Assembly: GCA_039584755.1 (NCBI GenBank) | Contig: JBDGXD010000002.1 | Coordinates: forward strand, 2,706 to 66,705 | Direction: 5' to 3' | Source of the DNA: Gemmatimonadota bacterium | Lineage (GTDB): Bacteria > Gemmatimonadota > Gemmatimonadetes > Gemmatimonadales > GWC2-71-9 | DNA: 64,000 nucleotides | In this document: positions 5,797 through 38,730 of the stretch, piece after piece | Layout: the number at the start of each line of letters is the position of its first letter | How positions within the stretch are numbered: position 1 is the first letter of the stretch | Translations under genes and position numbers: made by a program | Notes under the pieces: generated by a model | What the model was told of the DNA's origin: nothing | The model's database searches: none | What the model saw: the letters and a program-made list of their open reading frames with translations, nothing else

Positions 5797-6634
5797 TACG
5801 ACAGAAGATACACAGCTGAGTGGTAGGGAGTAGGGGAGCCGGATCAGGTCCATTTGCTGGGCTACCGGCTACCATATCCTGCAATGTTGCAGCGCATTGG
5901 GGGAAAGGGTCTCCGTAGAATCGGCTGGACAGAAAACCGAATATGGACGTGACCCTCTGCTGCAGTTCGCTCAGGGCCGGCGACCACATTGACAGGGCTC
6001 GCTTGGACGAACCAGGCATCTCGGCCTGCTTCCTCGGGTGGGAACGCGGGCTGACCCATCTTATGTAGGCAAAGTCGGCCGTCGGCTGCTGTGCCAAATC
6101 CAGCATCAGTCTCCGTCTTATCCACCGATCGTCTGTCAAGACAAGTGCGACGTTACGTGATCGCAGAAGCTCGAGTAGCTCGACTGTCATCCAGTCTGCC
6201 CTCCTGCACTCCAACGCCCACTTGAACCCAGCCGGTAAGGACTGTACGAAGTTCGTTAGAGCACGGCGTGTCTCATCGCTCGGGGAAATGGCGGTAGACA
6301 TGCTCAATAGCAGAGGTCCCAGTTTGTTCTCCAGCAGGATCACTCGCTCCAAAAAGCGCGACAGCAACTTGCTGGTACCCACAAACCGACGCTCGTGCGT
6401 GACTTGCTGTGGAACCTTCAGGGCAAACTGGAACCCGTCCGGGACCGCCTCACGCCAGGCCTCCACCAGCGACGCAGGTGGGATCCCCGCAAACGTGTCG
6501 GCGATCTCGACCGTGGGGTAGTCGGCTGCGTAAACCCGCAGTATCTCGAATTCCCCACTTGCGTGTCGATCGTAGGGACCCGGACATTCGAACTGGTTCC
6601 AACCATGACATCCCAGAAACAAGGAAGTGCCCAT
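5750..6634 (-). CDS. DUF72 (UPF0759) family protein
   Basis: 294-aa ORF. LGCHGWNQ ... YPTVEIADTFAGIP ... FQFALKVPQQVTHE matches the DUF72 pattern. Its 3' end overlaps the nadE start region. Confidence 0.8.
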   Translation of the reverse strand: MGTSLFLGCHGWNQFECPGPYDRHASGEFEILRVYAADYPTVEIADTFAGIPPASLVEAWREAVPDGFQFALKVPQQVTHERRFVGTSKLLSRFLERVILLENKLGPLLLSMSTAISPSDETRRALTNFVQSLPAGFKWALECRRADWMTVELLELLRSRNVALVLTDDRWIRRRLMLDLAQQPTADFAYIRWVSPRSHPRKQAEMPGSSKRALSMWSPALSELQQRVTSIFGFLSSRFYGDPFPQCAATLQDMVAGSPANGPDPAPLLPTTQLCIFCRNESPHCNCSDKANKS

Positions 6635-23830: not shown

Positions 23831-26800
23831 ATGCAACAGCGACCCACGATCACCTCGGTTCTCCGGCAGTTGAACACAACGCGGCAGCTGACTCTGCTGT
23901 TTCGACTCCTGGAATATCAACCCGATGATCGACCGTTTGGCGACCGCTGTCAGATCGTGGCTCGATGGAAGGGATTCGAGGTCATTGCGTTGGACAGTGC
24001 GAGGCCGCGAGATGAAGTGCGAGAATTGGCTCGCAGGCTCGCCGGCACCTCCTCTCGAGCACTGGCAGTAGCGGTAGATCCAGCACGAGAGCTGGCTCTT
24101 GCCGCACCTCGATTCGGCCAGCCCGGAACCACGAGGGTCTTGATCATCTCCCTCGAGTCGCCATCACCGTTCGCACTTCAACAGCTCGAACGACTGCGTC
24201 CGGCTCGATCTTCCAGCGCGCTGGGTCACGCGCTCCATGTAGCAGACGTCTTGAGCAGTGAAGAGGTGAGCGACCGATTCTTCACTGCATTTCGCGGGAT
24301 AATGGAGCGAATGGCCGCGTCATTGAGCAAGAACTGGTCAATGGCAGATCGACGCATGGTCACGTTGCTTGCGTTGAACCGCATTCTGTTCTTGTACTTC
24401 GTTCAGGCCAAGCATTGGCTCGATGGCCAGCCCGATTTCCTGTCACGGTTGCTCGATGATTCGCTCTCGTGCGGCGCGGACTTCCACCGCACGGCTCTCG
24501 AACCGCTCTTCTTCGGGACCCTGAACCGTGCACCCCAAGACAGGGAGCAATGCTGCAAATTCGGCGAGATTCCCTATTTGAACGGCGGTCTATTCGAGCC
24601 GCACACAGTAGAACGACGGCTCGGGTCTGTACACTTCTCCAACGAACTGTGGCGCGATGCATTCGACGGTGTCTTCGAACGGTTCAGATTCTGTATCAAT
24701 GAATACGATGAGGTAGACGCCATAGCACCAGACATGCTGGGACGAGCATTCGAGAGGTTGATGGACCATGCAGAGCGTCATGAGACAGGTACCTACTACA
24801 CACCGGAATCGATCGTTCGGCAAGTCGTGGAAGCTGCAATTGAGACTGCCCTGACAGCACACGTTTCCTCTGATGTGGCCCAATCACTCGTCAGGCGACG
24901 CGCACTAACAGCAAAGGATGCACGAGCGTGTCACACAGTTCTCAAGAGGTTGCGCATTCTGGACCCAGCCGTTGGGTCCGGAGCATTCTTGCTCGGTGCA
25001 CTCCAGTCGCTCACGGAGATGAGGTCCAAACTGGCACAACCACGACAAACAGGCAGTGGAGGGCAGCTGAGAAGGGAGATTCTTCAGGAAAACCTGATGG
25101 GAGTCGATCTCAATCCGATTGCAGTGCGACTTGCCGAGTTACGGCTCTGGCTCGCGGTGATAGCCGACGATGCAACCGATGACATTGGCAAGATCATGCC
25201 CTTGCCCAACCTGGATGGCGTCGTACGTCAAGGTGACACTCTGCTGGACCCACTCAGCGCAGCTCAGATGCTGAGTCCTGCCAGCCTCAACTTAGGGGGC
25301 CGCTCGGCGCTTTCAGTGAGTACGGCAAGACGAGCGTTGTTCGACGCGCGGGGCGAGGCTCTCTCGACCAATATGCGCAACCTACGAGCTGCCGAAACTT
25401 TGATGGCATACAGTGTTCTAGACCATGCGATGGAGAACACGGTCCAGGCTACGAACGATCTCGCCAGTGTGGCCCTCAGCAACGATCTGTTCGGCAAGCG
25501 GACCGGTTTGTCCGCCGCTCAGCGCCAGAGACATCGCGCGCTGAAGCGTGTGAGACAAGGTCTGCTGCTTGCTCGCAAGAAGATCACGGAAGGTGAGCTG
25601 CCGTTTTTTGCGTTCGAGGTGCATGCACCTGATATCATGGCGGACGGGGGTTTCGACATGGTGGTCGGGAATCCCCCGTGGGTACGTGCTGAGCGACTGC
25701 CGCTGAATCGGCGGCGCGCTCTACGCAAGCGATTCAGCTGGTGGCGTGGTGACCATGTACGCGGGTTCGCACATCTGCCTGACCTCTCTGTTGCGTTCCT
25801 ACAGCGTTGTCTCGAGTTGACGGCACCCGACGGTGCGGTCGGATTGCTATTGCCCAGCAAGATAACGTCAGCGGCATATGGCGAAACGGCAAGGCGGGCT
25901 CTCGTGAAAGAAACGTCTATTGCATACTTGAATCGCATTGCTGAAAAGGATGCTGCTCGGTTCAAGGCCACGACCTATCCACTGGCCGTTGTGGTTCAGA
26001 AGAAACGGCCGACTAGAGACCACGAGGTGAAGATCGCGTTTACAGAAGATCGCGCAGTCCTACAACGTCTGCTCGATGTTCCCGGATCGTGGATCATACT
26101 TCCGTCGAAAGCCCGCAACGCTATCGATGAGTTTCTTTCTGCCGGTGACTCGTTGGGTAGCATCTCGCCACCCATGTTGGGTGTGAAAACAGGCGCTAAT
26201 GACGTCTTTGTGGGTGAGTTGATCGACTCTCGTGGAGACAGCGCCGTGGTGAAGTTTGGCAATCACAAGACAATGGTCGAGCAGGCGTTACTGAGACCAG
26301 CCCTCCGAGGACGTGACATTCGTCCCTTCATGTCGACGAGCGTCCGTGTCATCCTGTGGACACATGACGGCTCCGGCAGGCCATTACGATCCCTACCGCG
26401 AAAAGCATCACGATACCTCGGTCAAAAGAACGAGCGCCTGCGCTCACGGCAAGACTACCAGAGCGGCCCGACCTGGACCGTCTTCCGGGTGGCCGGTGCG
26501 ATCTCCACCAATCGAGTGGTCTGGTCTGACATAGCACGTTATCCGCGCGCCGTGGCACTAGATGAAGTGAACGCTAGCACCGCAGTCCCACTGAACACGT
26601 GCTATGTAGCGGCCGCACCTGACAGGGAGGTGGCCCTGGCGATCGCAGCAACATTGAACTCAAGCTGGGCGCACGCCTTGTGCTTGGTGAGCGCCGACGA
26701 AGCACGAGGCGGTTACCGGCGTATCAATGCACGCCTCGCAGCTCAGATACCGATTCCTGCCGGCAGCGCTTCCCGTGAAGCACTTGCCGACTTGAGCCGA

Positions 26801-26920
26801 CGGGCTCACCAGCGAGAAGATGTCAACCAAGACCAAGTGGACGAGGCAGTGGCCGATGCCTTGGACCTATCAGGAGCAACCCGAAAAGTCCTCCGGTCTC
26901 TGGCCCCGCATCGAGGCTGA
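23831..26920 (+). CDS. N6-adenine DNA methyltransferase, gamma-class, Eco57I/PglX/type IIG-like with TaqI_C-like specificity domain
   Basis: 1029 aa. It has the helical N-terminal region with IPYLNGGLFE, YYTP, motif I ILDPAVGSGAFL (about 24.96 kb), motif IV NPPW (25670-25681), and a C-terminal region resembling TaqI-type target-recognition domains. I could not see a PD-(D/E)xK nuclease motif. Confidence 0.85.
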   Translation: MQQRPTITSVLRQLNTTRQLTLLFRLLEYQPDDRPFGDRCQIVARWKGFEVIALDSARPRDEVRELARRLAGTSSRALAVAVDPARELALAAPRFGQPGTTRVLIISLESPSPFALQQLERLRPARSSSALGHALHVADVLSSEEVSDRFFTAFRGIMERMAASLSKNWSMADRRMVTLLALNRILFLYFVQAKHWLDGQPDFLSRLLDDSLSCGADFHRTALEPLFFGTLNRAPQDREQCCKFGEIPYLNGGLFEPHTVERRLGSVHFSNELWRDAFDGVFERFRFCINEYDEVDAIAPDMLGRAFERLMDHAERHETGTYYTPESIVRQVVEAAIETALTAHVSSDVAQSLVRRRALTAKDARACHTVLKRLRILDPAVGSGAFLLGALQSLTEMRSKLAQPRQTGSGGQLRREILQENLMGVDLNPIAVRLAELRLWLAVIADDATDDIGKIMPLPNLDGVVRQGDTLLDPLSAAQMLSPASLNLGGRSALSVSTARRALFDARGEALSTNMRNLRAAETLMAYSVLDHAMENTVQATNDLASVALSNDLFGKRTGLSAAQRQRHRALKRVRQGLLLARKKITEGELPFFAFEVHAPDIMADGGFDMVVGNPPWVRAERLPLNRRRALRKRFSWWRGDHVRGFAHLPDLSVAFLQRCLELTAPDGAVGLLLPSKITSAAYGETARRALVKETSIAYLNRIAEKDAARFKATTYPLAVVVQKKRPTRDHEVKIAFTEDRAVLQRLLDVPGSWIILPSKARNAIDEFLSAGDSLGSISPPMLGVKTGANDVFVGELIDSRGDSAVVKFGNHKTMVEQALLRPALRGRDIRPFMSTSVRVILWTHDGSGRPLRSLPRKASRYLGQKNERLRSRQDYQSGPTWTVFRVAGAISTNRVVWSDIARYPRAVALDEVNASTAVPLNTCYVAAAPDREVALAIAATLNSSWAHALCLVSADEARGGYRRINARLAAQIPIPAGSASREALADLSRRAHQREDVNQDQVDEAVADALDLSGATRKVLRSLAPHRG

Positions 26921-29159
26921 ACAACTCCGCCGCGTTCGCGAACCACTGCGATGGTTGCTGGAGCTGGGCCGCCGCGAGGCCGCGACCGATGTTGAGCCGG
27001 TTCTCCGGAGGGCGGCACTCGGCCTGAGAGATGACCGGTGGAACCCACCGGAGTGGTTGCTTCCACATCAGGTGGACGCAGCACGTCGCGTGACACACAG
27101 CTTGCAGTCATTCGGCTTCGCGCTTCTAGCCGACGCGGTCGGACTCGGCAAAACCTACGTTGCCCTGGCCCTAGCGGCAGCCTACCGCAAGCCAGTCGCC
27201 GTGGTTCCGGCCGCGATTGTCTCACAGTGGCAGCGGGTCAGCGGCGAGGTTGGAATCGATTTAGCCATTCATACTCACGAGGCGATGAGCCGCGGGAGGC
27301 GAGCGCTTGGTGCCGACCTCATCATCACAGATGAAGCTCACCGATTCCGCAATCCCAACACGCGGCGTTACGACGTGCTCGCGCGCACAGTTGGGTGCTC
27401 GCATCTCCTGTTGCTTACTGCGACACCTGTGGTCAACGGCGCTGCCGATCTCGTGAACCTGACACGCCTCGCTCTAGCGGACAATGCATTCGCCATCTTC
27501 GGCTTGCCATCAATGGAGCGAGCTCTAAACGGTGGAGATCACCAACGGATAATGCACGCTTCCGCAGCGGTGATAACCGCGCGCGCGCCCAACAACATCC
27601 CCAGCCTTCACGAATCCCTACCCAAGGTGACAGACGAACCGGTACTGCGCCCGCCACCTGCAGCATACAGGAGAGTCACCGCCCTGCTACGCGCGGTAGA
27701 CAGACTCGAGTTCCCCAGCCTGAGTAACACTGCTGAGGCGGCCCTGCTCCGACTCCACTTGTTGTACAGACTCGCTTCCTCCACGGACGCGTGTCGTGAA
27801 ACAGTACTACGCCACCTGGTTTACATGGATCGGGCGATTGAAGCGGCCGACAGAGGTGAGACTCTGTCACGTGCGAAGGCTAGGCAGGTCTTCTCGTCTG
27901 AAGTTGAGCTAAAGCTAAACCTTCAGCAGTTCTCGCGGCTCGAGAACGTGGCTGACATACAGAAACTGCGAGAAGACCGTCATCGACTCGGACGATTGCT
28001 GCTCCTTCTCACCAGGATGAACGGTACAAGCCCAAAGACCATCGCACTCAAGCGACTCCTGACCAAGCGCACCAATCGCAAGACCATAGTATTCACTACC
28101 GCTCTCGCGACCGCACATATGCTCGCCCGGGCTATGGGCTGGCAACGGGTTGCTGTCGTCGGCTCTGGCCAGGCCTGGATTGCTTCTGGACGTTTGCCAG
28201 TGGAAGAAGCCCTGGCGTTGTTTGCTCCGGTGGCGCGTCGCGCACCCAATCCGCCAGCCTCTTCTGTAGTTCAAGTTCTGTTGGCAACAGACCTAGTCAG
28301 TGAGGGACTCGATCTGCAAGATGCTGATGCAGTTGTACACTACGATCTTCCCTGGACCCCGCTCAGGCTGCAACAGAGAGTTGGCCGTGTTGTGCGGTTG
28401 GGTTCGAGGCACGACGCAGTAGAGGTATCGTGGTTTGCTCCACCGAGTGCCATTGAGTGCAGACTCGCACTGGAAGCAAGAATCGCCGCAAAGGCAAGCT
28501 GCCAGCTCGATCTTCACGTTGCGATCACGTCGAGCGTCGGCAACGCACAAGTAATGAACCGCCTGCTGGAACAACGCGAAGCACTCGGCATGGCGCACAG
28601 CACCACGGCGCCGTCCGATCCTCGGCACGCAGTGGTCAAGGGTCCACAGATCGCGATAGTCGCGATACAATGGGAGTGGGGTAAGGCAAGCGGTACGGAA
28701 CTATTGGCAATGACCGGCGAACCCCCTCGACTGGTTGGCAGCTACGGAGAGATTGACATCCTCATCGGGCTGTTGAGTTCCTCACCCCGCACTCCCTCCC
28801 CTCCACCTGATGCGCTGTTGGCATGCCTCCTCCCCGTGGTGCGATGCCGCCTGGCTACGGCTGATCGGGGATCAACGAATCAAGCAACCCGGCGTCTGGC
28901 ACGCCATTTGGTTAGACGTGCCTACATTGCAGGCAAGAGGCGTGATGCCAAGTCTGTCAACATATGCGACGCCGTACTCGACCGCTTGAGGCACGGTGTC
29001 TCAGTTGGTGGCGAGCGCAGTTTGGAGGAGTTGTCACGCCTCGGAGGACCCCTAGGAGGCCTCAGCGACTGGCTCAAAGATCAACCAGAAAAAAAGGACG
29101 GTTGCCCCAAATTCACCATCGTGGCAGCCATGTTTGGCGACGGCACTGTAGCTGAGTGA
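26820..29159 (+). CDS. SNF2-family (SF2) helicase/translocase
   Basis: Motif I GLGKT (27141-27155), motif II DEAH (27330-27341), motif III LLLTATP, motif VI QQRVGRVVRLGS. About 250 aa at the C-terminus are uncharacterised. The 5' end overlaps the methyltransferase gene by 68-100 nt, depending on the start chosen. Confidence 0.85.
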   Translation: MSTKTKWTRQWPMPWTYQEQPEKSSGLWPRIEAEQLRRVREPLRWLLELGRREAATDVEPVLRRAALGLRDDRWNPPEWLLPHQVDAARRVTHSLQSFGFALLADAVGLGKTYVALALAAAYRKPVAVVPAAIVSQWQRVSGEVGIDLAIHTHEAMSRGRRALGADLIITDEAHRFRNPNTRRYDVLARTVGCSHLLLLTATPVVNGAADLVNLTRLALADNAFAIFGLPSMERALNGGDHQRIMHASAAVITARAPNNIPSLHESLPKVTDEPVLRPPPAAYRRVTALLRAVDRLEFPSLSNTAEAALLRLHLLYRLASSTDACRETVLRHLVYMDRAIEAADRGETLSRAKARQVFSSEVELKLNLQQFSRLENVADIQKLREDRHRLGRLLLLLTRMNGTSPKTIALKRLLTKRTNRKTIVFTTALATAHMLARAMGWQRVAVVGSGQAWIASGRLPVEEALALFAPVARRAPNPPASSVVQVLLATDLVSEGLDLQDADAVVHYDLPWTPLRLQQRVGRVVRLGSRHDAVEVSWFAPPSAIECRLALEARIAAKASCQLDLHVAITSSVGNAQVMNRLLEQREALGMAHSTTAPSDPRHAVVKGPQIAIVAIQWEWGKASGTELLAMTGEPPRLVGSYGEIDILIGLLSSSPRTPSPPPDALLACLLPVVRCRLATADRGSTNQATRRLARHLVRRAYIAGKRRDAKSVNICDAVLDRLRHGVSVGGERSLEELSRLGGPLGGLSDWLKDQPEKKDGCPKFTIVAAMFGDGTVAE

Positions 29160-29895: not shown

Positions 29896-31125
29896 CTACT
29901 TGAACAACTTGTCCAAGACCGCGAACAGTGCCGGCAGTAAATAGAACAGTCCCATGACGTATACGAGTGCCCACTTGCGTGACTTGACGGCGGTATTCGA
30001 GATCCAGCGTGCGGCGTTCAGCGGAATGGCGCGAATTCGCGGCCATGGGTAGATGAGAACGGTGCCACTCACATTGAATCCCAGATGCACCAGGGCAATG
30101 ATGAGACCTGCCTGTGCATTCTCACCAGTAACTGCGAGAGCCGCAAGTAGCGCAGTAATGGTCGTACCGATATTGGCTCCGATCGTGATGGGAAACGCTC
30201 GCGCCAATGTGATTACGCCGGCACCTGCTAACGGCACGAGGAGCGATGTCGTGATCGAACTGGATTGAACCATCACGGTTACGATAACCCCAACCAACAT
30301 TGCAAGCAGAGCGCTGCGGTCCAGGGCTTTGGAGACAATAGATTCCACGCGTGTCTGCATGGCCGATCTCATCACCTTTACGAGCATCATCAAGGCAAAG
30401 AAGATCAGAATGCAGCTCACTACGATCAGCACGATTGACTGGATCTGGTGCGCATCGGTTACGAAGGCTATCGCACCTTTTATCTGTCCTACCGTAGCCT
30501 TGAGGGCACCTTTGATTGGACTGTCATAGTCCATCCCGCCTCCCCCGAGTTCCGTGAGAAAGACGGAGAGTGTGGTCGCACTGCGTTGCAGGTAGCCCGT
30601 CAACAATTCCAATGGCAGCAGCACAGCAACGGCTAAGAAGTTGAAGAAATCGTGGCAGGTGGCCACTGCAAAAGCGCGCCGGAACTCCTCTGGTCGTCCC
30701 ATGTGCGCCAGGGAGACAATGGTGTTGGTGACCGTAGTGCCGATGTTGGCACCCATTATCATCGGAACAGCATTGGCGATGGGAAGAGGATTATCGGGAG
30801 CGGCCACGAACGCCACAATCATCGATGTGGTAACCGACGAACTCTGAGCGAGTGTCGTCGCAAGAACACCAACCATCAATGCAACGAACGGATTTTCGGT
30901 AGCCGCGAAGAACGAGTCGAGCACCCCTTGGCCAAGTGACTTGAAGCCGTCACCTAAACCATTCACACCGGTCAAGAATATGAAGAGAAGCAAGAGGACC
31001 GCAGCCAACCTTGCGGTCGGGTGGGTTGCAAGTGACGCGAGTTTCCCCGGCGGTGGCGAACCACCTGTCATCGGCGGACTCGTTGATGTGCGAGGTGAGT
31101 CAGGCTCGGATGACGATTCCGTCAA
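29896..31125 (-). CDS. Na+/phosphate cotransporter family protein (NptA/YjbB N-terminal type)
   Basis: 409-aa polytopic protein with duplicated motifs GANIGTTVTN / GANIGTTITA, characteristic of Na/Pi cotransporter II-related proteins. It has a TTG start at 31125, and an alternative ATG at 31071 is possible. Confidence 0.85.
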   Translation of the reverse strand: MTESSSEPDSPRTSTSPPMTGGSPPPGKLASLATHPTARLAAVLLLLFIFLTGVNGLGDGFKSLGQGVLDSFFAATENPFVALMVGVLATTLAQSSSVTTSMIVAFVAAPDNPLPIANAVPMIMGANIGTTVTNTIVSLAHMGRPEEFRRAFAVATCHDFFNFLAVAVLLPLELLTGYLQRSATTLSVFLTELGGGGMDYDSPIKGALKATVGQIKGAIAFVTDAHQIQSIVLIVVSCILIFFALMMLVKVMRSAMQTRVESIVSKALDRSALLAMLVGVIVTVMVQSSSITTSLLVPLAGAGVITLARAFPITIGANIGTTITALLAALAVTGENAQAGLIIALVHLGFNVSGTVLIYPWPRIRAIPLNAARWISNTAVKSRKWALVYVMGLFYLLPALFAVLDKLFK

Positions 31126-31220
31126 CCGACACTAGATGCTGCAATCTTTGTCGCAGCAAATTTTATCCTGTAAAGCCTTGCAAATCAAGCAGATAAATGG
31201 CTGTCTTGCTTGAGTGTAAT

Positions 31221-31260
31221 TTCGGGTTATATTCGGTATAATGGCCGAACAAACGCCGAA
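31221..31260. promoter_or_regulatory. Candidate operator: TTCGG-N6-TTCGG-N8-CCGAA-N6-CCGAA, symmetric about a TATAAT box
   Basis: TTCGG at 31221 and 31232; CCGAA at 31245 and 31256; TATAAT at 31237-31242. It sits in the AT-rich divergent intergenic region between the Na/Pi transporter gene and the radical-SAM/imuB/dnaE2 operon. Confidence 0.45.
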
Positions 31261-31346
31261 TACGCAACCCCGCGGCGCAACCCTGGCAAGCTCCAGAAAA
31301 GCGGTGGAGCAAACCATTCTTTGGACATCTGCACGATGTCCGGAAT

Positions 31347-32429
31347 GTGGCGCAAGTGTTTACCCAGCTTCAGGTTGCTTTTTCTGTCCGACATGTGGAT
31401 GGGGTAAGTGTGGCTAGGGGCGGTGGATGGCAGGATGGACAGAAAACAATCTCGTTGATCGATCTCGACATCAAATCGATCATCAACCCGCCTGAGAGCA
31501 CCGGTATGGGTTTTTGGTCGATCAATCCCTACGTGGGATGCGAGCTCGGGTGCAGCTACTGCTATGCCAGGTATGCACATCGTTACGTGATGGAGCGAAC
31601 ACATGATGCTGGGCAGATATCGATCGAGGAGTTCAATCGGTTTAGGGAAACACAGAGTTGGGAAGGTTTCGAACGACAGATATTTGTAAAGCGACGTAGG
31701 TCTGTACTTATAGCACTGGAGCGTGATCTCGCGAAAATTCGCATGAAAAGCACCCGTAGCAGACCACATCCCATAGTCATTGGCACTGCCACGGACCCCT
31801 ACCAACCGGCAGAGCAACGTTTTCATATAACACGCGCCATACTCCGCAGATTGCTGGAGACTCGGGGCTTAACCATCAGCCTCATAACAAAGAGCCCTCG
31901 TGTCTGTCGCGACATCGAGTTGCTGCGCGAGCTTAGCGCTAGACATCGGCTGGTAGTGTACATCTCACTCATCAGCACCGACGTACGGATCATCAAGCAG
32001 TTCGAGGCACGTTCACCGATGCCTCATGCGAGGCTCGCTACGCTGCGGAAGTTTACCGACGTTGGTATCATCGCTGGGCTCAACGTAGCTCCTGTACTAC
32101 CTGGTATTACCGACTCTGCTTTTCAGATAGACTCTCTCATGGCGGCTGCGCGTGAAGCTTCTGCTACTTTTGTGCATCCTGCGGCACTTCAGTTCTTCCC
32201 CACAGTTCGAGATGGCTACTTGCCAATAGTCGAAAAGCACTTTCCCGATCTGGTTCCACGGTATCGTGTCGCTTACCGAGGCAACTGGGATGCCCCAACT
32301 GATTATGTAGCTGCGATCAGACGACGTTTCCAGCGTGCCGCCCGCAAGTACGGGCTGGACACTGATGATCCACTACAAATAGGAGAGCAACGCCAAGCGG
32401 AATGCGATGCACAGTTGAGTCTGCTATGA
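31347..32429 (+). CDS. Radical SAM protein, SplB/COG1533 'DNA repair photolyase'-like
   Basis: SINPYVGCELGCSYCYARY (CxxxCxxC at 31539-31562) plus the downstream TIM-barrel-like pattern typical of this family. The start is uncertain, with in-frame GTGs at 31395 and 31410. Confidence 0.85.
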   Translation: MAQVFTQLQVAFSVRHVDGVSVARGGGWQDGQKTISLIDLDIKSIINPPESTGMGFWSINPYVGCELGCSYCYARYAHRYVMERTHDAGQISIEEFNRFRETQSWEGFERQIFVKRRRSVLIALERDLAKIRMKSTRSRPHPIVIGTATDPYQPAEQRFHITRAILRRLLETRGLTISLITKSPRVCRDIELLRELSARHRLVVYISLISTDVRIIKQFEARSPMPHARLATLRKFTDVGIIAGLNVAPVLPGITDSAFQIDSLMAAAREASATFVHPAALQFFPTVRDGYLPIVEKHFPDLVPRYRVAYRGNWDAPTDYVAAIRRRFQRAARKYGLDTDDPLQIGEQRQAECDAQLSLL

Positions 32430-33886
32430 AACGGGCGGCAAGACTGTCTCGAGGTAAGACGGTACGAAACAGGGTAGCGTCTCACCGACGAACCAACTTA
32501 TCACCTTACCGCAGCGCAGGCGGCAGTACGAATCTCCAAAGCGAGTTGGCAGTTTGCATCTGGTTACCACTTTTCGCACTACGTTGCGAACAACAACGGC
32601 GGTCCGAGTTTACGAATGACCCCACTGCACTCCTCGCCGTGGAGGACGTACGCAGACTCTGGCAGGTATCCCCAACTGCACGCCGTGCAGGTGTCAAGGC
32701 AGGCATGACAGTGAGCCAAGCGGTTGGACTCTGTCCAGCTCTCTTACTCTGGGAACCTGATCCAGTGTACTATGACGTGCAATTTTCCAATTTGCTCCTC
32801 GAGCTGGGCAATGTAAGTCCGGTGATCGAGCCAGGAGAATTGGGTCAGCTGTATGTGGGGGTCGACGGATTGCAAAGACTCTATGGATCACCGGAAGATC
32901 AGATAGGCATGATCCAACACACAGTGACGGTGTGGCAGCGAAAGCTGGTGGCCGGAAGCCGGGAGTCAAGAGCGAATATCGCAAGGGATGGCTGGAAAAC
33001 GCGGAATAGGAAGTGGGAGTTACGCCTTTCTAAGGGTGACAAGGAAACGGAGCAAGCTGCACGTTTTTGCGTTTGCACCTTTGCACGTTTTGGATGGGGC
33101 CGCGGCAAGTTCACTGCCTGGGTAGCTGCCACGCGTGCTAATCCTGGTGAGGCGGTGATCGTCAGCGAGAAGGAGCGGGTGGGATTCCTTGCATCACAAC
33201 CGATTGCAGTATTGCCACTCGAGTCAGACACACACAGACGATTGTGGCGCCTTGGAATTAAAACGTTGAGTGACCTCGCCCAGTTGCCTGAAGCTGCTGT
33301 AGTGTCTCAATTCGGTAGGGTGGGACGCCGTTTGTGGTCGCTCGCTGCTGGCGCGGTGGTCGATCCTGTTGTCGGTAGGAAGACCCCTGAACCAATCATA
33401 GCCAAAGTCGATTTTTCCCATCCGGTAGCAGATCGTACAATGCTCTCGCATTCCCTCGACCGGCTGATCGAGCAAGCATTACGCCATCCCCAACGTGCCG
33501 GTTGGCGCATCCTCAAAGCTCAGGTATGCGCACGACAAGAGAACGGCACCTCCTGGGTGTCCAGCGCCACTCTCAATGATCCTTCGGCGGATCGGCGCCA
33601 CATAGCCGCTCCTCTGAAGATCCGACTCGAGCACGCGCAATTCGTGAAAGCGGTTGAAACCCTAGCAGTGGAATTCACGATGTTCGCCCGCGGCACCGAT
33701 GAGCTACAACTGTTTGCCCGTGACGCAAACAGCTCAGCTCGGGCAGGGCGCCAACGTGCGCTGCGCACTGCAGTACGCGAGATAAAGGCGAGGTACAGAC
33801 GTTCTGGTCTGTATCAGATAGTAGAGGTTCAACCACATTCGCGACTGCTCGAACGCCGTTATGCACTAATAGACTATGATCCATAA
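32426..33886 (+). CDS. imuB: ImuB-like Y-family DNA polymerase homolog (predicted catalytically inactive)
   Basis: Y-family fold pattern, but the N-terminus reads LAVCIWLPLFALRCEQ, with no DxD carboxylates. There is a possible clamp-binding-like ELQLF at 33701-33715. ATG 32426 overlaps the radical-SAM stop (ATGA), and the track start at 32402 is also possible. Confidence 0.8.
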   Translation: MKRAARLSRGKTVRNRVASHRRTNLSPYRSAGGSTNLQSELAVCIWLPLFALRCEQQRRSEFTNDPTALLAVEDVRRLWQVSPTARRAGVKAGMTVSQAVGLCPALLLWEPDPVYYDVQFSNLLLELGNVSPVIEPGELGQLYVGVDGLQRLYGSPEDQIGMIQHTVTVWQRKLVAGSRESRANIARDGWKTRNRKWELRLSKGDKETEQAARFCVCTFARFGWGRGKFTAWVAATRANPGEAVIVSEKERVGFLASQPIAVLPLESDTHRRLWRLGIKTLSDLAQLPEAAVVSQFGRVGRRLWSLAAGAVVDPVVGRKTPEPIIAKVDFSHPVADRTMLSHSLDRLIEQALRHPQRAGWRILKAQVCARQENGTSWVSSATLNDPSADRRHIAAPLKIRLEHAQFVKAVETLAVEFTMFARGTDELQLFARDANSSARAGRQRALRTAVREIKARYRRSGLYQIVEVQPHSRLLERRYALIDYDP

Positions 33887-34193
33887 TCAGCTGCACCCAC
33901 TCAATCTCCCACGGCGTGTACAGGTCCAGTTGAACAATGAGGGGCTGCCATTGGCTGTGGCAAGCGACTCCGTCCTATTACCTGGTTCGACGGTTGAGAA
34001 GCAATTGAGTGACGTGCCCAAAGACGACGTAAAATCGGTAGCCGCCATACTCGAGATCTGGCGTGTCGAGGACGAATGGTGGCGGCAGCCGATATCACGC
34101 CGCTATGTGGAGGTTGTTCTGCAGGGAGGACGTCATGTGGTGTTGTACGAAGATTTGGCTACGGGTGATTGGTTTATACAAAGATGCGATTAG
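33876..34193 (+). CDS. Small Trp-rich protein of the imuB-dnaE2 cassette (DUF6504-like by recollection)
   Basis: 105 aa. The motif ILEIWRVEDEWWRQPISRRYVEVVLQGGRHVVLYEDLATGDWFIQ is present. It overlaps the imuB 3' end by 11 nt and lies 56 nt upstream of dnaE2. Confidence 0.6.
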   Translation: MIHNQLHPLNLPRRVQVQLNNEGLPLAVASDSVLLPGSTVEKQLSDVPKDDVKSVAAILEIWRVEDEWWRQPISRRYVEVVLQGGRHVVLYEDLATGDWFIQRCD

Positions 34194-34249
34194 GAGGCAG
34201 AAGAAAGAGATCGAATTGACTCTACCTCCCTTTCCCTCTCCTCTTCATT

Positions 34250-37200
34250 ATGTACATCGAACTCCACTGCCATTCCGCATTTTCGTTTCTTGACGGTGCC
34301 ACACCACCTGAGCAGCTGGTACTTCAAGCACACAACCTCGGTTATCCAGCCCTTGCGCTCACCGACCATAACGGTTTGTACGGCTCCATGGCTTTTGCCC
34401 AGTCAGCCACACAGATGGGCATTCAACCAATTACTGGCGCAGAAGTCACTCTGTTAGATCGCTCACATGTCACACTGTTAGCAGAAACATCTGAGGGCTA
34501 TGGTAACCTATGTCGCTTGATCACAGAGGCACATCTAGGTCGAGAAGACCGGCGTGACCCACGACTCGACTTCGCATCTTTGGAACGACTCCACGGCGGC
34601 ATTCTCATACTTTCTGGGTGTCGTGCCGGTTTACTACCGACGGTACTGCTCCGCGAGGGGTACACAGCCGCACGGAGATTGGCCGAGCGTTGTCGTCACG
34701 TTTTTGGACAGGATAGTTTTTTCATCGAGCTGCAGCGCAACTCGGTACGCGGTGATCGAGCACTCAACGCAGCGCTTTGCGATATAGCCGACACTACGGG
34801 CATTCAGGTTGTAGCTACTGGCAACGTGCATTACGACCAACCACAGCGGCATCGCCTTCACGATGCGTTAATTGCAATAAGACACCGCAGTACACTCGAT
34901 GCGTCCCACGAGGTGCGTCATTCAAACGCAGAATATTATCTGCGGTCCCCTGAGCACATGGCGACTCTATTTGCGGACCGGCCTGACGCTGTAGCAAATA
35001 CCAGGGCGATCGCTGAGCGATGTGCGTCGTTTGATCTGACGAGAGATCTGGGATACACATTTCCCGACTTCCGTGGAGCAGATCGATCGACTGCCCAACG
35101 GGCCCTTGCAGAACTCGCCGCTGTAAAGCTCGAGGAGATGTATCCACTCGACTCACCGCATCGCAGCGAAGCCGAAAGCCGGGTGAAGCAGGAGCTGAAA
35201 CTGATCGAGCAACATGGCTTGTGTGGTTTTTTCCTTGTTTATCGGGACCTGCTCGAGCTTGCCCATGAAGTTGCAACTGACGTGCGCAAAGGGTCACGTC
35301 GCATCAAAGGAAATTTGCTCCCGGGACGGGGCCGCGGTTCATCCGTTTCTTCAATCATCTGCTATTTCCTGGGTTTGTCACACATCGATCCCATTGCAAA
35401 TAATCTCTTCTTGGGACGATTTCTCAATGAGTCACTTACTTCGATTCCGGACATCGATCTCGATTTCCCCCGTGAGATCCGTGAGGAGCTGATCCGACGG
35501 GTCTATCAACGCTATGGTTCCGAACACGTCGGCCTCGTTTGTGCCTTTCCTACATACCATCTCCGCTCAGCAGTTCGCGAGCTCGGAAAAGCGCTGGATC
35601 TGCCGCAATCGGAATTGGAACAGGTCGTGCGGCTCGCGGGACACGGATCTGCCAAGAGTCTACGTGAGGAGCTGAAGAAGCTGCCCGCCTTCGCCGCCAG
35701 GGTCAATGCAACTCAATGGCGCAACCTGTGTGATTTGGCCGAGGACGTGGCGGAGTTGCCAAGACACATTTCACAGCATGTGGGAGGCATGATCATTTCG
35801 AGTCGCCCACTCGTTGAACTTGTTCCACTCGAACGTGCCGCCATGCCTGATCGCGTTATATGCCAGTGGGATAAGGATTCCTGCGATGATGCCCGTTTTG
35901 TCAAGATCGATTTTCTCGCACTCGGCATGCTTTCGCTCGTTGAAGAGTGCGTTGAACTGATAGCCCGGCGTGATGGGGAGCCCCCTGACCTGAGTCGCAT
36001 CGATTTCCACGACGCCTCGGTGTATGACCAGATCTGCACCGGTGATACTGTAGGAACTTTTCAGATCGAAAGTCGCGCCCAAATCCAGATGGTCCGACGC
36101 ACCCGGCCTCGTAGTCTCGAGGATCTCTGTGTGGAAGTCGCCATTGTCCGGCCTGGCCCAATCGTGGGTGGCGCGGTCAATCCTTTTGTTCGTCGACGCG
36201 AGGAGCAACGGCGCGCGCACTCGCGCAGCAAATCTTACCAACCACCCGTGGATCATCCACTGCTCAAAGAGGTGCTCGCGGAAACCCTAGGAGTCATTGT
36301 TTATCAAGATCAAGTGCTGCAGGTATGTCAGGCACTAGCTGGTTTCACCGCCGGACAAGCAGAAGCGCTGCGCCGGGCAATGAGTCGACGTCGCTCGCGG
36401 GAACTCATGGAAGGCTTTTGGCAGGAGTTCCGCGAGGGCGCTGCGCGACGTGGCGTAGCAGAAGACACTGCCCAGCGTGTCTTTACTCAGGTTGTGGCGT
36501 TTTCCGAGTTCGGCTTCCCTAAATCGCACGCGGCCGCATTTGGCCTTCTGGCGTACCAATCAACCTGGCTACGGCACTATTACCCCGTCCAGTACTATGC
36601 GGCACTCTATAATAATCAACCAATGGGTTTCTATTCGCTGGATGCTCTCGGGCGTGATGCGAATCGGCACGACGTAGAGATTAGGCTGCCCGACATCAAT
36701 CGTAGCGACGTTCACTGTGTGGTTGACGAGAATGCAGTACGAGTGGGATTTGCATTTCTACGCGACTGGGGCCGCGATGTTGCAGAACAAACGGTGCTCG
36801 AACGTGAAGTAAACGGACCTTACCGAAGTCTGGCCGACTTCGTGCGGCGGGCACCATCACGATTGTCCCGTGATGCAATTGAAAATCTGGCTTGGGTGGG
36901 TGGCTGCGATTGTTTTGGCCTGACCAGACGTGAGCTACTCTGGCAAGTTGGACTGTGGCTACCACCTAAGACCGCGCAGCCGGACGGTAAGCGAGTGCGG
37001 CGTCAGTTGGAGCTGCCGTTCAATCACCCATATGAAGATCTCCGGTTCACCGACGTACCGGCCGATCAACGGCTCCTGTCGGAGTACCAGATGTTGGGCT
37101 TTGCCGCGAGTGGTCACCCTTTCACGCTTCTGACTCGCAGCCTTCCACAGGGCATAGTGAGTAGTGATAGGCTCGTGCATATGGAACATGAAGCTGAGAT

Positions 37201-37534
37201 ACAAGTAGCCGGACTGGTCGTCGCACGACAGCGGCCCGTCACCGCGAAGGGTTTCACGTTCATCCTACTGGAGGATCAAGCGGGTATGATGAACGCCATT
37301 GTCAGACCAGATGTATACGAACGAGACCGTGTCACCATCCGCGGTGAACCACTAGTGTGGATTATCGGTAAGCTGGCAAAAGATGACGGCACTGTGAACG
37401 TGATTGCTGAACAAGTGCGGGCTCTGGAAGTGCGATCACAGAATGTACCCAAAATCCTATCTGCATCACGATCACCGAGTGCATTTCTCAAGGATCTACG
37501 GCGCACGGCTCCAGGTTCTAGAAACTGGGGCTAA
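34250..37534 (+). CDS. dnaE2: Error-prone DNA polymerase III alpha-like subunit DnaE2 (ImuC)
   Basis: 1094 aa. N-terminal PHP domain MYIELHCHSAFSFLDGA ... LALTDHNGLYG, then the Pol III alpha core and a C-terminal OB region. The length and the imuB neighbour are typical of DnaE2. Confidence 0.9.
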   Translation: MYIELHCHSAFSFLDGATPPEQLVLQAHNLGYPALALTDHNGLYGSMAFAQSATQMGIQPITGAEVTLLDRSHVTLLAETSEGYGNLCRLITEAHLGREDRRDPRLDFASLERLHGGILILSGCRAGLLPTVLLREGYTAARRLAERCRHVFGQDSFFIELQRNSVRGDRALNAALCDIADTTGIQVVATGNVHYDQPQRHRLHDALIAIRHRSTLDASHEVRHSNAEYYLRSPEHMATLFADRPDAVANTRAIAERCASFDLTRDLGYTFPDFRGADRSTAQRALAELAAVKLEEMYPLDSPHRSEAESRVKQELKLIEQHGLCGFFLVYRDLLELAHEVATDVRKGSRRIKGNLLPGRGRGSSVSSIICYFLGLSHIDPIANNLFLGRFLNESLTSIPDIDLDFPREIREELIRRVYQRYGSEHVGLVCAFPTYHLRSAVRELGKALDLPQSELEQVVRLAGHGSAKSLREELKKLPAFAARVNATQWRNLCDLAEDVAELPRHISQHVGGMIISSRPLVELVPLERAAMPDRVICQWDKDSCDDARFVKIDFLALGMLSLVEECVELIARRDGEPPDLSRIDFHDASVYDQICTGDTVGTFQIESRAQIQMVRRTRPRSLEDLCVEVAIVRPGPIVGGAVNPFVRRREEQRRAHSRSKSYQPPVDHPLLKEVLAETLGVIVYQDQVLQVCQALAGFTAGQAEALRRAMSRRRSRELMEGFWQEFREGAARRGVAEDTAQRVFTQVVAFSEFGFPKSHAAAFGLLAYQSTWLRHYYPVQYYAALYNNQPMGFYSLDALGRDANRHDVEIRLPDINRSDVHCVVDENAVRVGFAFLRDWGRDVAEQTVLEREVNGPYRSLADFVRRAPSRLSRDAIENLAWVGGCDCFGLTRRELLWQVGLWLPPKTAQPDGKRVRRQLELPFNHPYEDLRFTDVPADQRLLSEYQMLGFAASGHPFTLLTRSLPQGIVSSDRLVHMEHEAEIQVAGLVVARQRPVTAKGFTFILLEDQAGMMNAIVRPDVYERDRVTIRGEPLVWIIGKLAKDDGTVNVIAEQVRALEVRSQNVPKILSASRSPSAFLKDLRRTAPGSRNWG

Positions 37535-38730
37535 TCCGTAACCGACTGGCCTCGCGTCTGCAGGATCCGCTCGATCGCTTCACCAATCTTATTGTTTGGC
37601 GTCGAAGCTCCGGCAGAAACGCCAACAGCCTGCACATTCTCCAACCAGTCGATCTTCTCCACTTCATCAATCTCACCAACGGGCTTGAAGCTAATTGATC
37701 CCGAAACTGGATCGATACATGAAGCATCGGCGATATGGTAGGTCGTGCGTTTTTCTGAACATATCTTTGCCAAGTGATTAGTGTTGCTCGAGTTGTATCC
37801 CCCGATCACAAGCATGACATCCAACGGTTGCTCGATCAGCTCCAGAACAGCGTCCTGCCGTTCCTGGGTTGCAGAACAGATGGTATCGAATGAGCGAAAG
37901 TGCTCGGACAAGTCCGCCTTGCCAAACCGTCGTTCCATGGCCGCTGCAACGCGATCGGCGATCGCCAGCGACTCGGATGCCAGCATTGTAGTCTGGTTGG
38001 CTATTCCAATGTGCTCGAGATCGTGCTGGAAGTCGAAGCCTTCAGACACTTTCTCGCGAAACGAGGCCTCGAGCACAGTAGCATCTCCACCATGCTCGAT
38101 GAAGTTGCACACGATTTCGGCTTCTGCCATGTCTCGTACGATCAAATACCTGCCGTTGGCGAACTTCCGTACCTGACTTGCCGTCGCCTTAGTCTCCTCA
38201 TGGAGATACTTGCCGTGGACCACGGCCGTGAATCCATCTCGCGCGTATTGTTCTACTCGTTTCCACACGTTGAGCACCGACCCACACGTAGTGTCAACGA
38301 GTACGCAACCGAGTTCGCGAAGGTGTTGGAAATCACGCAAGGTTACTCCAAATGCCGGAATGATGACCACATCCTCAGCCGTGACAGGAGAGTAGTCGAA
38401 TTCGCCAGCGGCATCGGGACGAAGGATGGTGATCCCCATGCTTTCCAGTTTGGCATTGACGTGCGGGTTATGAATGATCTCGCCAACGAGGAAGACCCGC
38501 TTGTCCGGAAACTTGGTCTCTGTTTCGTAGGCATATTCCACTGCCCTATCGACGCCGTAGCAGAACCCGAACTCCTTCGCAAGCTTGACGGTGATGTCGC
38601 CCACTAACAGAGAGTTACCTGACAGACGTATGCGATCGATTAGCTGGCTGTGATAGTCGGCGGCGAGATTTCCAGCGATCTCGCGCTTCAGGCCGAAACC
38701 CTTACGAAAGTAGGTCTGATTCATCAGCAA
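37531..38730 (-). CDS. ispH: 4-hydroxy-3-methylbut-2-enyl diphosphate reductase (long form)
   Basis: FGFCYGVDRAV ..., HNPHV, and conserved Cys/His/Glu positions of LytB/IspH. At 399 aa it resembles the long cyanobacterial/plant-type form. Its stop overlaps the dnaE2 stop (convergent). Confidence 0.9.
   Translation of the reverse strand: MLMNQTYFRKGFGLKREIAGNLAADYHSQLIDRIRLSGNSLLVGDITVKLAKEFGFCYGVDRAVEYAYETETKFPDKRVFLVGEIIHNPHVNAKLESMGITILRPDAAGEFDYSPVTAEDVVIIPAFGVTLRDFQHLRELGCVLVDTTCGSVLNVWKRVEQYARDGFTAVVHGKYLHEETKATASQVRKFANGRYLIVRDMAEAEIVCNFIEHGGDATVLEASFREKVSEGFDFQHDLEHIGIANQTTMLASESLAIADRVAAAMERRFGKADLSEHFRSFDTICSATQERQDAVLELIEQPLDVMLVIGGYNSSNTNHLAKICSEKRTTYHIADASCIDPVSGSISFKPVGEIDEVEKIDWLENVQAVGVSAGASTPNNKIGEAIERILQTRGQSVTD

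Follow-up and report, generated by a model that had tools for sequence, protein, structure and literature searches.

In a 64,000-nucleotide stretch of DNA from a Gemmatimonadota bacterium (contig JBDGXD010000002.1; hereafter, the window), we analyzed a cassette of four genes lying on the same strand (positions 31347-37534), which encode a radical S-adenosylmethionine (radical-SAM) protein, a homolog of Y-family DNA polymerases, a protein of 105 amino acids (aa), and the polymerase DnaE2. Taken as a whole, the cassette is likely a damage-inducible operon that couples a lesion-processing enzyme resembling spore photoproduct lyase (SPL) to a mutasome made of a "split ImuB" and DnaE2, the latter presumably using RecA. 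The locus is a conserved variant of known systems and not a new kind of system. A previous reading of the window, made from the letters alone (the sequence-only reading), had taken the arrangement to be uncharacterized, which holds only in part: the ImuA-less architecture has been published and an operon link between ImuB-C and SplB-like genes was noted in 2013, whereas the phylum-wide linkage of the radical-SAM gene to the mutasome, a TTCGG operator, and a clamp-binding-like tail on the radical-SAM protein are new.

A mutasome with a split ImuB

The listing of open reading frames (ORFs) and the sequence itself bore out the gene layout and the junctions given by the sequence-only reading (Table 1). 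The stop codon of the radical-SAM gene and the start codon of the Y-family gene share ATGA (32426-32429, in the context CTATGA), the TAA of the Y-family gene (33884-33886) makes an 11-nucleotide (nt) overlap with the small ORF, which starts with the ATG at 33876, and the stop codon of the small ORF (34191-34193) is separated by a 56-nt spacer from the ATG of dnaE2. A candidate hairpin in this spacer, 5' of dnaE2, was rejected (z -0.06).

The Y-family protein (here called iPolY) matched the Pfam entry IMS (E 2e-13), and its scores with the NCBIfam Pol IV models were far under the cut-offs. In an alignment to E. coli Pol IV, D103 was replaced by G and E104 by Q, and when the same alignment was extended upstream by hand, D8 and D10 were found to be replaced by I and L. 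Judged by the loss of these Pol IV catalytic carboxylates, iPolY is catalytically dead, in agreement with the sequence-only reading. The ImuB-C profile gave no match on this protein (-0.1 bits). Its tail has the same order in 70 homologs, namely, ELQLFARDA, then ARAGRRRALRxAAxEIxxRLKRxxLY, then IEVQPWSRLPERRYALIDYEP. The position of ELQLF and the literature on ImuB make this pentapeptide a candidate beta-clamp-binding motif. Further on, hhalign placed the segment RQRALRTAVREIKARYRRSGLYQI on the N terminus of RecA (ERRKALNLAITQIEKTCGKGAIMRM) with a score of 16.1 (P 0.022), the maximum in 20 column shuffles being 13.3, and the position of this segment, about 35 aa before the end of the protein, agrees with that of the RecA N-terminal (RecA-NT) motif described for such proteins (PMC6511836). 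We regard this resemblance as suggestive only and call the segment RecA-NT-like.

The product of the small ORF had been left as an anonymous 105-aa protein. One search gave 111 homologs and a second one 1038 clusters at 50% identity, and the family shares an almost invariant motif, WRVDDEWWRQPISRRY...G.HVVLYEDL.TG.WF.Q. Searches of Pfam, NCBIfam, and PDB sequences with the protein and 37 homologs gave nothing useful. For comparison, we used the canonical ImuBs of the plasmid imuA-imuB-dnaE2 cassettes of Agrobacterium and Burkholderia, rhizobial ImuBs, and an ImuB-like protein of Thermomicrobium; a protein search with the Agrobacterium ImuB returned only sequences at least 79% identical and added little diversity. 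Against canonical ImuB, a hidden Markov model (HMM) built from Gemmatimonadota only was not significant and a broader HMM of 252 sequences reached only ∼10 bits, so that a profile-profile comparison was needed. With hhalign, the 252-sequence profile aligned to the C termini of ImuB over 80 columns (probability 94.3%, P 9.6e-8), ending within three positions of the ImuB C terminus, and the score of 48.7 compared with 12.4 for the reversed control and at most 19.7 for 20 column shuffles. On this profile evidence and its negative controls, we identify the 105-aa protein as a standalone ImuB-C domain. Since the gene read as "imuB" is without that domain, ImuB is split over two genes. The AlphaFold2 model of the small protein is all-beta with six strands (pLDDT 81), and a Foldseek search of the PDB with it found nothing better than E 0.36, which agrees with the published view of ImuB-C as a novel beta-barrel fold (PMC12926913).

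DnaE2 contains PHP, DNA_pol3_alpha, finger, HHH_6, and OB domains and scored 928 bits with the NCBIfam model NF004225, "error-prone DNA polymerase," slightly under the cut-off of 939. Its active site is intact, with all three catalytic Asp residues aligned to those of Taq Pol III alpha (Table 1).

The sequence-only reading of a mutasome cassette without imuA or lexA agreed with our searches. In the 64-kb window, LexA, RecA, and five ImuA or ImuA-like sequences, used as tblastn queries, detected no homolog (all E values at least 0.05, and at least 0.1 for RecA and the five ImuA or ImuA-like queries), and the same searches of 80 related loci of ±8 kb, defined below, gave nothing. The ImuA-like queries do detect RecA elsewhere, at ∼1e-10.

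This composition places the cassette among described mutasomes. ImuB-C was defined by Aravind et al. in 2013, who noted that it occurs solo in operons that pair it with DnaE2, sometimes together with an inactive DinB, and also in operons with SplB-like radical-SAM genes; the part of their supplement that was searched holds no Gemmatimonas entry (PMC3765255). Timinskas and Venclovas (Nucleic Acids Research [NAR], 2019) described ImuA-less sets that combine an inactive PolY with a standalone ImuB-C and DnaE2 and proposed that RecA replaces ImuA, with the RecA-NT motif of the dead polymerase as the proposed basis of this replacement (PMC6511836). The ImuA-less type was named "split ImuB" (DnaE2X systems) in NAR 2026, where AlphaFold models put ImuB-C on the PHP domain of DnaE2 (PMC12926913). 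As in the DnaE2-iPolY-ImuB-C(-RecA) mutasome of the Kyrpidia tusciae type, an inactive Y-family protein, a standalone ImuB-C, and DnaE2 are encoded in one operon in the window. The likeness to split-ImuB mutasomes extends to the lack of imuA in the sequence searched and to the clamp-like motif of the polymerase tail, and possibly to its RecA-NT-like motif, whereas the window operon differs in beginning with a COG1533 radical-SAM gene and in having no lexA. Neither polymerase survey mentions Gemmatimonadota (PMC6511836, PMC12926913). With the canonical (LexA)-ImuA-ImuB-DnaE2 systems (ImuABC) of Proteobacteria and Actinobacteria, the window operon shares an active DnaE2, a dead Y-family scaffold, the ImuB-C module, and a likely role in damage-induced mutagenesis, but it has no ImuA, its ImuB is split over two genes, and it is without a lexA gene or a known LexA box.

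A radical-SAM gene linked to the mutasome

We then looked into the conservation of the gene order. We scanned one genome per species with an ImuB-C alignment and obtained 344 loci; the best 80 of these, all from Gemmatimonadota, were analyzed by tblastn with the four window proteins. The order Y-family gene, ImuB-C, DnaE2 was found in 77/80 loci, where DnaE2 is 66 to 83% identical to the window protein, a similarity that by itself makes a Gemmatimonadota origin of the window very likely. Among the 67 loci with at least 4 kb of upstream sequence, 58 have a radical-SAM gene upstream on the same strand; it was not found in the remaining 9 within 6.4 to 7.6 kb of upstream sequence. The radical-SAM gene directly adjoins iPolY in 23/58 loci, and of the 22 junctions analyzed between its stop codon and the nearest in-frame start codon, 11 have an overlap of 4 nt and 6 an overlap of 7 to 8 nt. 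Both the adjacency and the 4-nt coupling, for which the sequence-only reading had suggested a survey of gene neighborhoods, are therefore conserved. One NCBI assembly (L214) repeats the whole synteny, including the PhoU and Na/Pi cotransporter genes that precede the cassette. With the same order of genes found in dozens of genomes and the small ORF widely conserved, the arrangement is not due to chance.

In the other 35/58 loci, the radical-SAM gene lies 0.9 to 3.6 kb away, and most of these have a divergent ORF of ∼300 aa just upstream of iPolY. When the ORFs in the gaps between the two genes were clustered, the outcome was spurious clusters of low complexity, as is typical of high-GC DNA, and restriction to long ORFs revealed that the divergent ORF is a DUF72 gene (Pfam DUF72, E 6e-53 and 1e-25 in two example loci). 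We observed this gene, of ∼300 to 330 aa, at 5624-6517 in locus L007 and at 5686-6624 in L025, both on the minus strand, and in about 30 other loci. It shares an operator-bearing intergenic region with the iPolY operon, a hint that DUF72 could be part of the same damage regulon. The association of the radical-SAM gene with the mutasome is thus conserved, and co-transcription is not obligatory. Some lineages, for example, Longimicrobiales, have iPolY and ImuB-C without an adjacent DnaE2 (L065, L077, L080, L210, and L211), and in L210 a convergent Memo-family gene stands in place of DnaE2.

The radical-SAM protein matched Pfam Radical_SAM (E 6e-11) and carries the motif that binds a [4Fe-4S] cluster in this superfamily (Table 1). 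Its best NCBIfam matches were the Rv2578c family (NF038135; 175 bits for a cut-off of 430, E 2e-51) and the PA0069 family (NF033668; 164 bits for a cut-off of 360, E 6e-48). Being below both COG1533 family cut-offs, it belongs to a related but separate subfamily. No SPL family model was among its NCBIfam matches at E ≤ 0.01, and its sequence had no match among PDB chains at E ≤ 1. An AlphaFold2 model (pLDDT 84), used to search the PDB with Foldseek, gave SPL for all of the top six matches (E 1.6e-8 to 4.6e-7; TM 0.50 to 0.55; about 300 aligned columns) and RlmN as the next (9e-6). "SplB-like" is accordingly a true description of the modeled fold, and the assignment by the sequence-only reading to a COG1533-type, SPL-like protein was right. 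The closest solved fold is SplB of Geobacillus thermodenitrificans (PDB 4FHC/4FHG), whose radical-SAM chemistry acts on DNA, as that of the window protein probably does; it differs in being 14% identical to the window protein, and the organism of the window is not a spore former. Because of this low identity and of the scores under the cut-offs of the named subfamilies, "repair of a photoproduct" is an analogy. We think it most likely that the enzyme acts directly on a DNA lesion, reversing or processing it via 5'-deoxyadenosyl-radical chemistry.

COG1533 proteins are known from other SOS regulons. Two papers from the Erill laboratory (PMC4951493, PMC8565304) document COG1533 "splB" as an SOS gene in many phyla, with LexA regulation shown in several; in Bacteroidetes, splB shares a regulon with dinB-dnaE2 operons. 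As far as covered here, both papers describe splB as an operon of its own, apart from the mutasome genes. The window protein shares with the COG1533 SOS proteins (Rv2578c/PA0069) the radical-SAM core with CxxxCxxC and, if its operator is read as we propose below, membership in a DNA damage regulon; it differs from the standalone COG1533 SOS genes in that its gene sits inside a mutasome operon. Our literature search found no biochemical study of COG1533 "SplB-like" radical-SAM proteins. In another reading, in keeping with scores under all named subfamily cut-offs, the enzyme would not be one of repair but would modify DNA or nucleotides, for instance by making or marking bases, and so favor mutagenesis by DnaE2. 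Aravind et al. did speculate on mutagenesis-related enzymes (DUF4130) near SplB-like genes (PMC3765255). We consider such a role very unlikely, as the closest solved fold, SPL, is a direct-reversal repair enzyme, the COG1533 family is SOS regulated alone in phyla without linkage to DnaE2, and the gene calls around the cassette include no DUF4130 or UDG partner.

Beta-clamp-binding peptides follow the consensus QL[SD]LF or QLxLxL. The radical-SAM protein of the window ends with a similar pentapeptide, QLSLL; among 40 homologs, Q356 never varies, and the conservation of L357 and L359 is ≥90%. The pattern Q-hydrophobic-x-hydrophobic-hydrophobic, mostly as QLSLL, was found within the last 8 residues of 67 of the 120 closest radical-SAM homologs; a few others end with QLELWG, QLGLWG, or QLSFWQ, and more distant Gemmatimonadota copies end with Q-x-x-L-x-L. 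The clamp-like C terminus spans homologs of three phyla, with the endings QLSLGI on a plasmid of Gemmatirosa, QLTLL in Streptomyces, and QGSLF in Ralstonia (homologs in L207, L208, and L209), and the single COG1533 homologs from Streptomyces and Ralstonia resemble the window protein in this respect. From the sequence of this tail, we propose that QLSLL probably tethers the protein to the beta sliding clamp. The literature search yielded no paper tying radical-SAM enzymes to clamp-binding motifs. As a separate observation, RuvB proteins of Gemmatimonadaceae (L117; cluster P0537-P0551) end with QVVLF, which likewise resembles a clamp-binding pentapeptide.

The sequence-only reading saw in the coupled genes a physical or functional link between the radical-SAM enzyme and translesion synthesis. 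The conserved neighborhood (58/67 loci) supports the link, and the idea of a direct complex with ImuB is weakened by the 35/58 loci in which the radical-SAM gene forms a transcription unit of its own, with a separate operator. In its strongest form, the radical-SAM protein would be an integral subunit of the mutasome, replacing ImuA or processing the lesion within the iPolY/DnaE2 complex. The stop/start overlap, here and in half of the analyzed adjacent-type junctions, the linkage itself, the lack of ImuA from the window and the 80 loci, and the clamp-binding-like motifs of both radical-SAM protein and iPolY would all be in keeping with this; we nevertheless judge it unlikely. The separated radical-SAM genes mostly lie beyond the divergent DUF72 gene, the 9 loci mentioned above showed no such gene upstream, and a solo copy on the Gemmatirosa kalamazoonensis plasmid has no iPolY, ImuB-C, or DnaE2 within 9 kb. 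Furthermore, iPolY, ImuB-C, and DnaE2 of other phyla have been reported with no radical-SAM partner being mentioned (PMC6511836), splB is a separate SOS gene in other phyla, and the RecA-NT-like motif of iPolY favors RecA as the substitute for ImuA. The separate units with their own operator thus argue for co-regulation over an obligatory complex with ImuB, and any physical link between the two proteins is more likely via the beta clamp, because both carry clamp-binding-like motifs.

The TTCGG operator and the flanks of the cassette

The promoter of the radical-SAM gene was found by comparing related loci; a generic sigma-70 scan missed it because its -35 element matches only 3/6 positions. 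It fits the pattern conserved upstream of homologous operons, CTTGC-N∼13-(at)CTTCGGGATATATTCGGG. The -10 box TATATT lies between two TTCGG half-sites spaced by 11 bp, to which radical-SAM promoters add an inverted CCGAA-N6-CCGAA, so that four half-sites straddle the -10 box. No terminator-like site was found within 31050-31400. In the whole 64 kb, exact TTCGG-N6-TTCGG has only two matches, both at this promoter, and in the 80 related loci (1.05 Mb), 122/128 exact sites lie just upstream of radical-SAM or Y-family genes. Where the two genes are adjacent, the operator precedes the radical-SAM gene in 21/23 loci and iPolY in 1/23; where they are separated, it precedes iPolY in 34/35 loci and usually the radical-SAM gene too.

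We also scanned metagenome contigs for the operator, using TTCGGNNTATATTCGG. Sites were found at 11 radical-SAM promoters and 13 iPolY promoters, before recA in 11 contigs (25 to 36 nt 5' of the predicted start), and 21 nt before the predicted start of ruvB. The operator also precedes genes for a UvrD-like helicase, an Lhr-like DEAD helicase, a DinB-family protein, DUF5131, two RecA-fold ImuA-like proteins, a canonical fused ImuB, a sigma-70-family factor, and an XRE-type regulator. By their NCBI names, the products of recA and ruvB are Gemmatimonadales and Gemmatimonadaceae proteins. Given its place before recA, ruvB, and other repair genes, the motif is best read as the DNA damage operator of the phylum; it appears, from these sequence comparisons, to be the first candidate DNA damage box for Gemmatimonadota, and the radical-SAM gene is probably part of the corresponding regulon, as it shares the operator with recA and ruvB. 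Our literature search found no paper describing a TTCGG-N6-TTCGG operator. The ImuA-like genes and the fused ImuB behind the same type of operator were seen on high-GC contigs (L096, 2313-; L198; L199, 6349-). Among the organisms that use this operator, both the classical and the split type of mutasome may therefore be present.

Direct repeats with an 11-bp periodicity are typical of OmpR/PhoB-type regulators. Together with the PhoU and Na/Pi cotransporter genes adjoining the cassette both here and in L214, and with tblastn searches that found no lexA near the operator in the loci examined, this could suggest that the operator belongs to a regulon unrelated to damage, for example, that of a response regulator or of phosphate, and that the cassette is not SOS-like. 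We find this highly improbable. Among the high-GC contigs, the genes behind the operator are overwhelmingly DNA repair genes, recA included, and the alphaproteobacterial LexA box, GTTC-N7-GTTC, is also a direct repeat of 11-bp periodicity (PMC8565304). The TTCGG operator resembles the latter in its spacing, in its TTC core, and in its position before recA and a mutagenesis cassette, and differs from it in the TTCGG half-site, in the inverted copies added at radical-SAM promoters, and in that no lexA was seen downstream of the motif. Searches by tblastn with LexA, an XRE regulator, and ImuA in the window, the genome loci, and the metagenome loci yielded no candidate repressor. The absence of lexA does not equal an absence of damage control, since the promoter bears an operator that recA and ruvB have as well.

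Around the cassette, on the opposite strand, lie the PhoU and Na/Pi cotransporter genes upstream and IspH downstream. Just upstream of PhoU and the Na/Pi gene (∼24302-29159, plus strand), an MmeI/Eco57I-type methyltransferase-restriction gene (872 aa) overlaps with the SNF2/helicase gene that comes next (767 to 779 aa), and the pair is a possible defense module. The G+C content is 0.535 to 0.553 across the cassette (30001-38000) compared with 0.58 to 0.60 on either side and 0.64 to 0.72 in related Gemmatimonadota loci, which may reflect horizontal acquisition or a local bias in composition. As for the gene models, neither the radical-SAM gene nor the Y-family gene has a settled start codon, and the first ∼32 and ∼36 residues of their products, respectively, are unconserved; those of the radical-SAM protein have low confidence in its structural model. 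Public JGI gene calls split the radical-SAM gene, truncate dnaE2, and place a 180-aa minus-strand gene over the 5' half of the radical-SAM gene. The split is an annotation error, because homologs align with the 360-aa ORF over the full length, and the 199-aa minus-strand ORF that overlaps the same 5' half (31227-31826) is most likely a gene-calling artifact.

Table 1. Features of the cassette and its promoter (window positions).
Feature	Positions	Strand	Remark
Promoter of the radical-SAM gene	31206-31233	+	-35-like TTGCTT (31206-31211), 16-nt spacer, -10 TATATT (31228-31233); from sequence and related loci
Putative operator, four half-sites	31221-31260		Exact motif: TTCGGGTTATATTCGG (31221-31236) and inverted copy CCGAACAAACGCCGAA (31245-31260), straddling the -10 box
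Radical-SAM gene	31347-32429	+	360 aa; GTG is the first possible start
CELGCSYC, CxxxCxxC motif for the [4Fe-4S] cluster	31539-31562	+	C65, C69, and C72 invariant in 40 homologs
QLSLL, beta-clamp-binding-like pentapeptide at the extreme C terminus of the radical-SAM protein	32412-32426	+	Q356 invariant; L357 and L359 conserved at ≥90%
Y-family gene (iPolY)	32426 (alternative ATG 32402) to 33886	+	486/494 aa
ELQLF, candidate beta-clamp-binding motif of the iPolY tail	33701-33715	+	ELQLFARDA almost invariant in 70 homologs
RQRALRTAVREIKARYRRSGLYQI, RecA-NT-like motif of the iPolY tail	33749-33820	+	Conserved in 70 homologs
Standalone ImuB-C ORF	33876-34193	+	105 aa
dnaE2	34250-37534	+	1094 aa
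PDIDLDF, catalytic Asp motif of DnaE2	35447-35467	+	Aligns with PDIDTDF of Taq Pol III alpha (PDB 2HPI)
KIDFLAL, catalytic Asp motif of DnaE2	35903-35923	+	Aligns with KMDFLGL of Taq Pol III alpha (PDB 2HPI)

Proposed pathway and significance

We propose that a single operon encodes two responses to damage, lesion reversal and lesion bypass. The radical-SAM enzyme would reverse or process a DNA lesion while tethered to the beta clamp by QLSLL. For the bypass, iPolY would act as a dead scaffold carrying the clamp-binding-like and RecA-NT-like motifs, the separate ImuB-C beta-barrel would dock on the PHP domain of DnaE2, by analogy with the published models, and DnaE2 would be the active error-prone polymerase of the mutasome. 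RecA, encoded elsewhere, would take the place of ImuA, a substitution to which the RecA-NT-like motif of the iPolY tail points. A putative repressor would bind the four TTCGG half-sites straddling the -10 box and, the operator being common to recA, ruvB, and other repair genes, damage would switch on lesion reversal and lesion bypass together.

Several observations weigh against this account. With SPL, the radical-SAM protein has an identity of only 14% and a TM of ∼0.5, and it falls under both COG1533 subfamily cut-offs. The pattern used for the clamp motif also matched 15 of 55 RecA/RuvB controls, all with QVVLF-like endings, and is therefore not fully specific by itself. The RecA-NT match of iPolY is statistically weak (P 0.022). 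No lexA was detected by tblastn next to the operator in any locus examined, and the absence of imuA covers 64 kb plus the ±8-kb flanks, with ImuA-like genes sharing the operator in contigs L096 and L198.

A broader idea, which we put forward tentatively and think rather improbable, is that the COG1533 radical-SAM proteins of SOS regulons are clamp-tethered lesion processors at stalled replisomes and that, in Gemmatimonadota, they share a clamp "toolbelt" with the split-ImuB/DnaE2 mutasome. If so, a lesion would be converted or reversed by the enzyme, after which DnaE2 would bypass it or no longer have to, and the translational coupling would mark a true functional module in which radical-SAM chemistry and translesion synthesis are joined.

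Few SOS genes are as widely conserved as those for COG1533 "SplB-like" radical-SAM proteins. Their linkage to the mutasome operon across a phylum, the operator shared with recA, and the clamp-like peptide provide testable leads as to where and when this enzyme works. Another contribution of the locus is an example, well conserved across a phylum, of the split-ImuB mutasome, the proposed ancestor of ImuABC, and cultured Gemmatimonadota may offer a system in which to study it.

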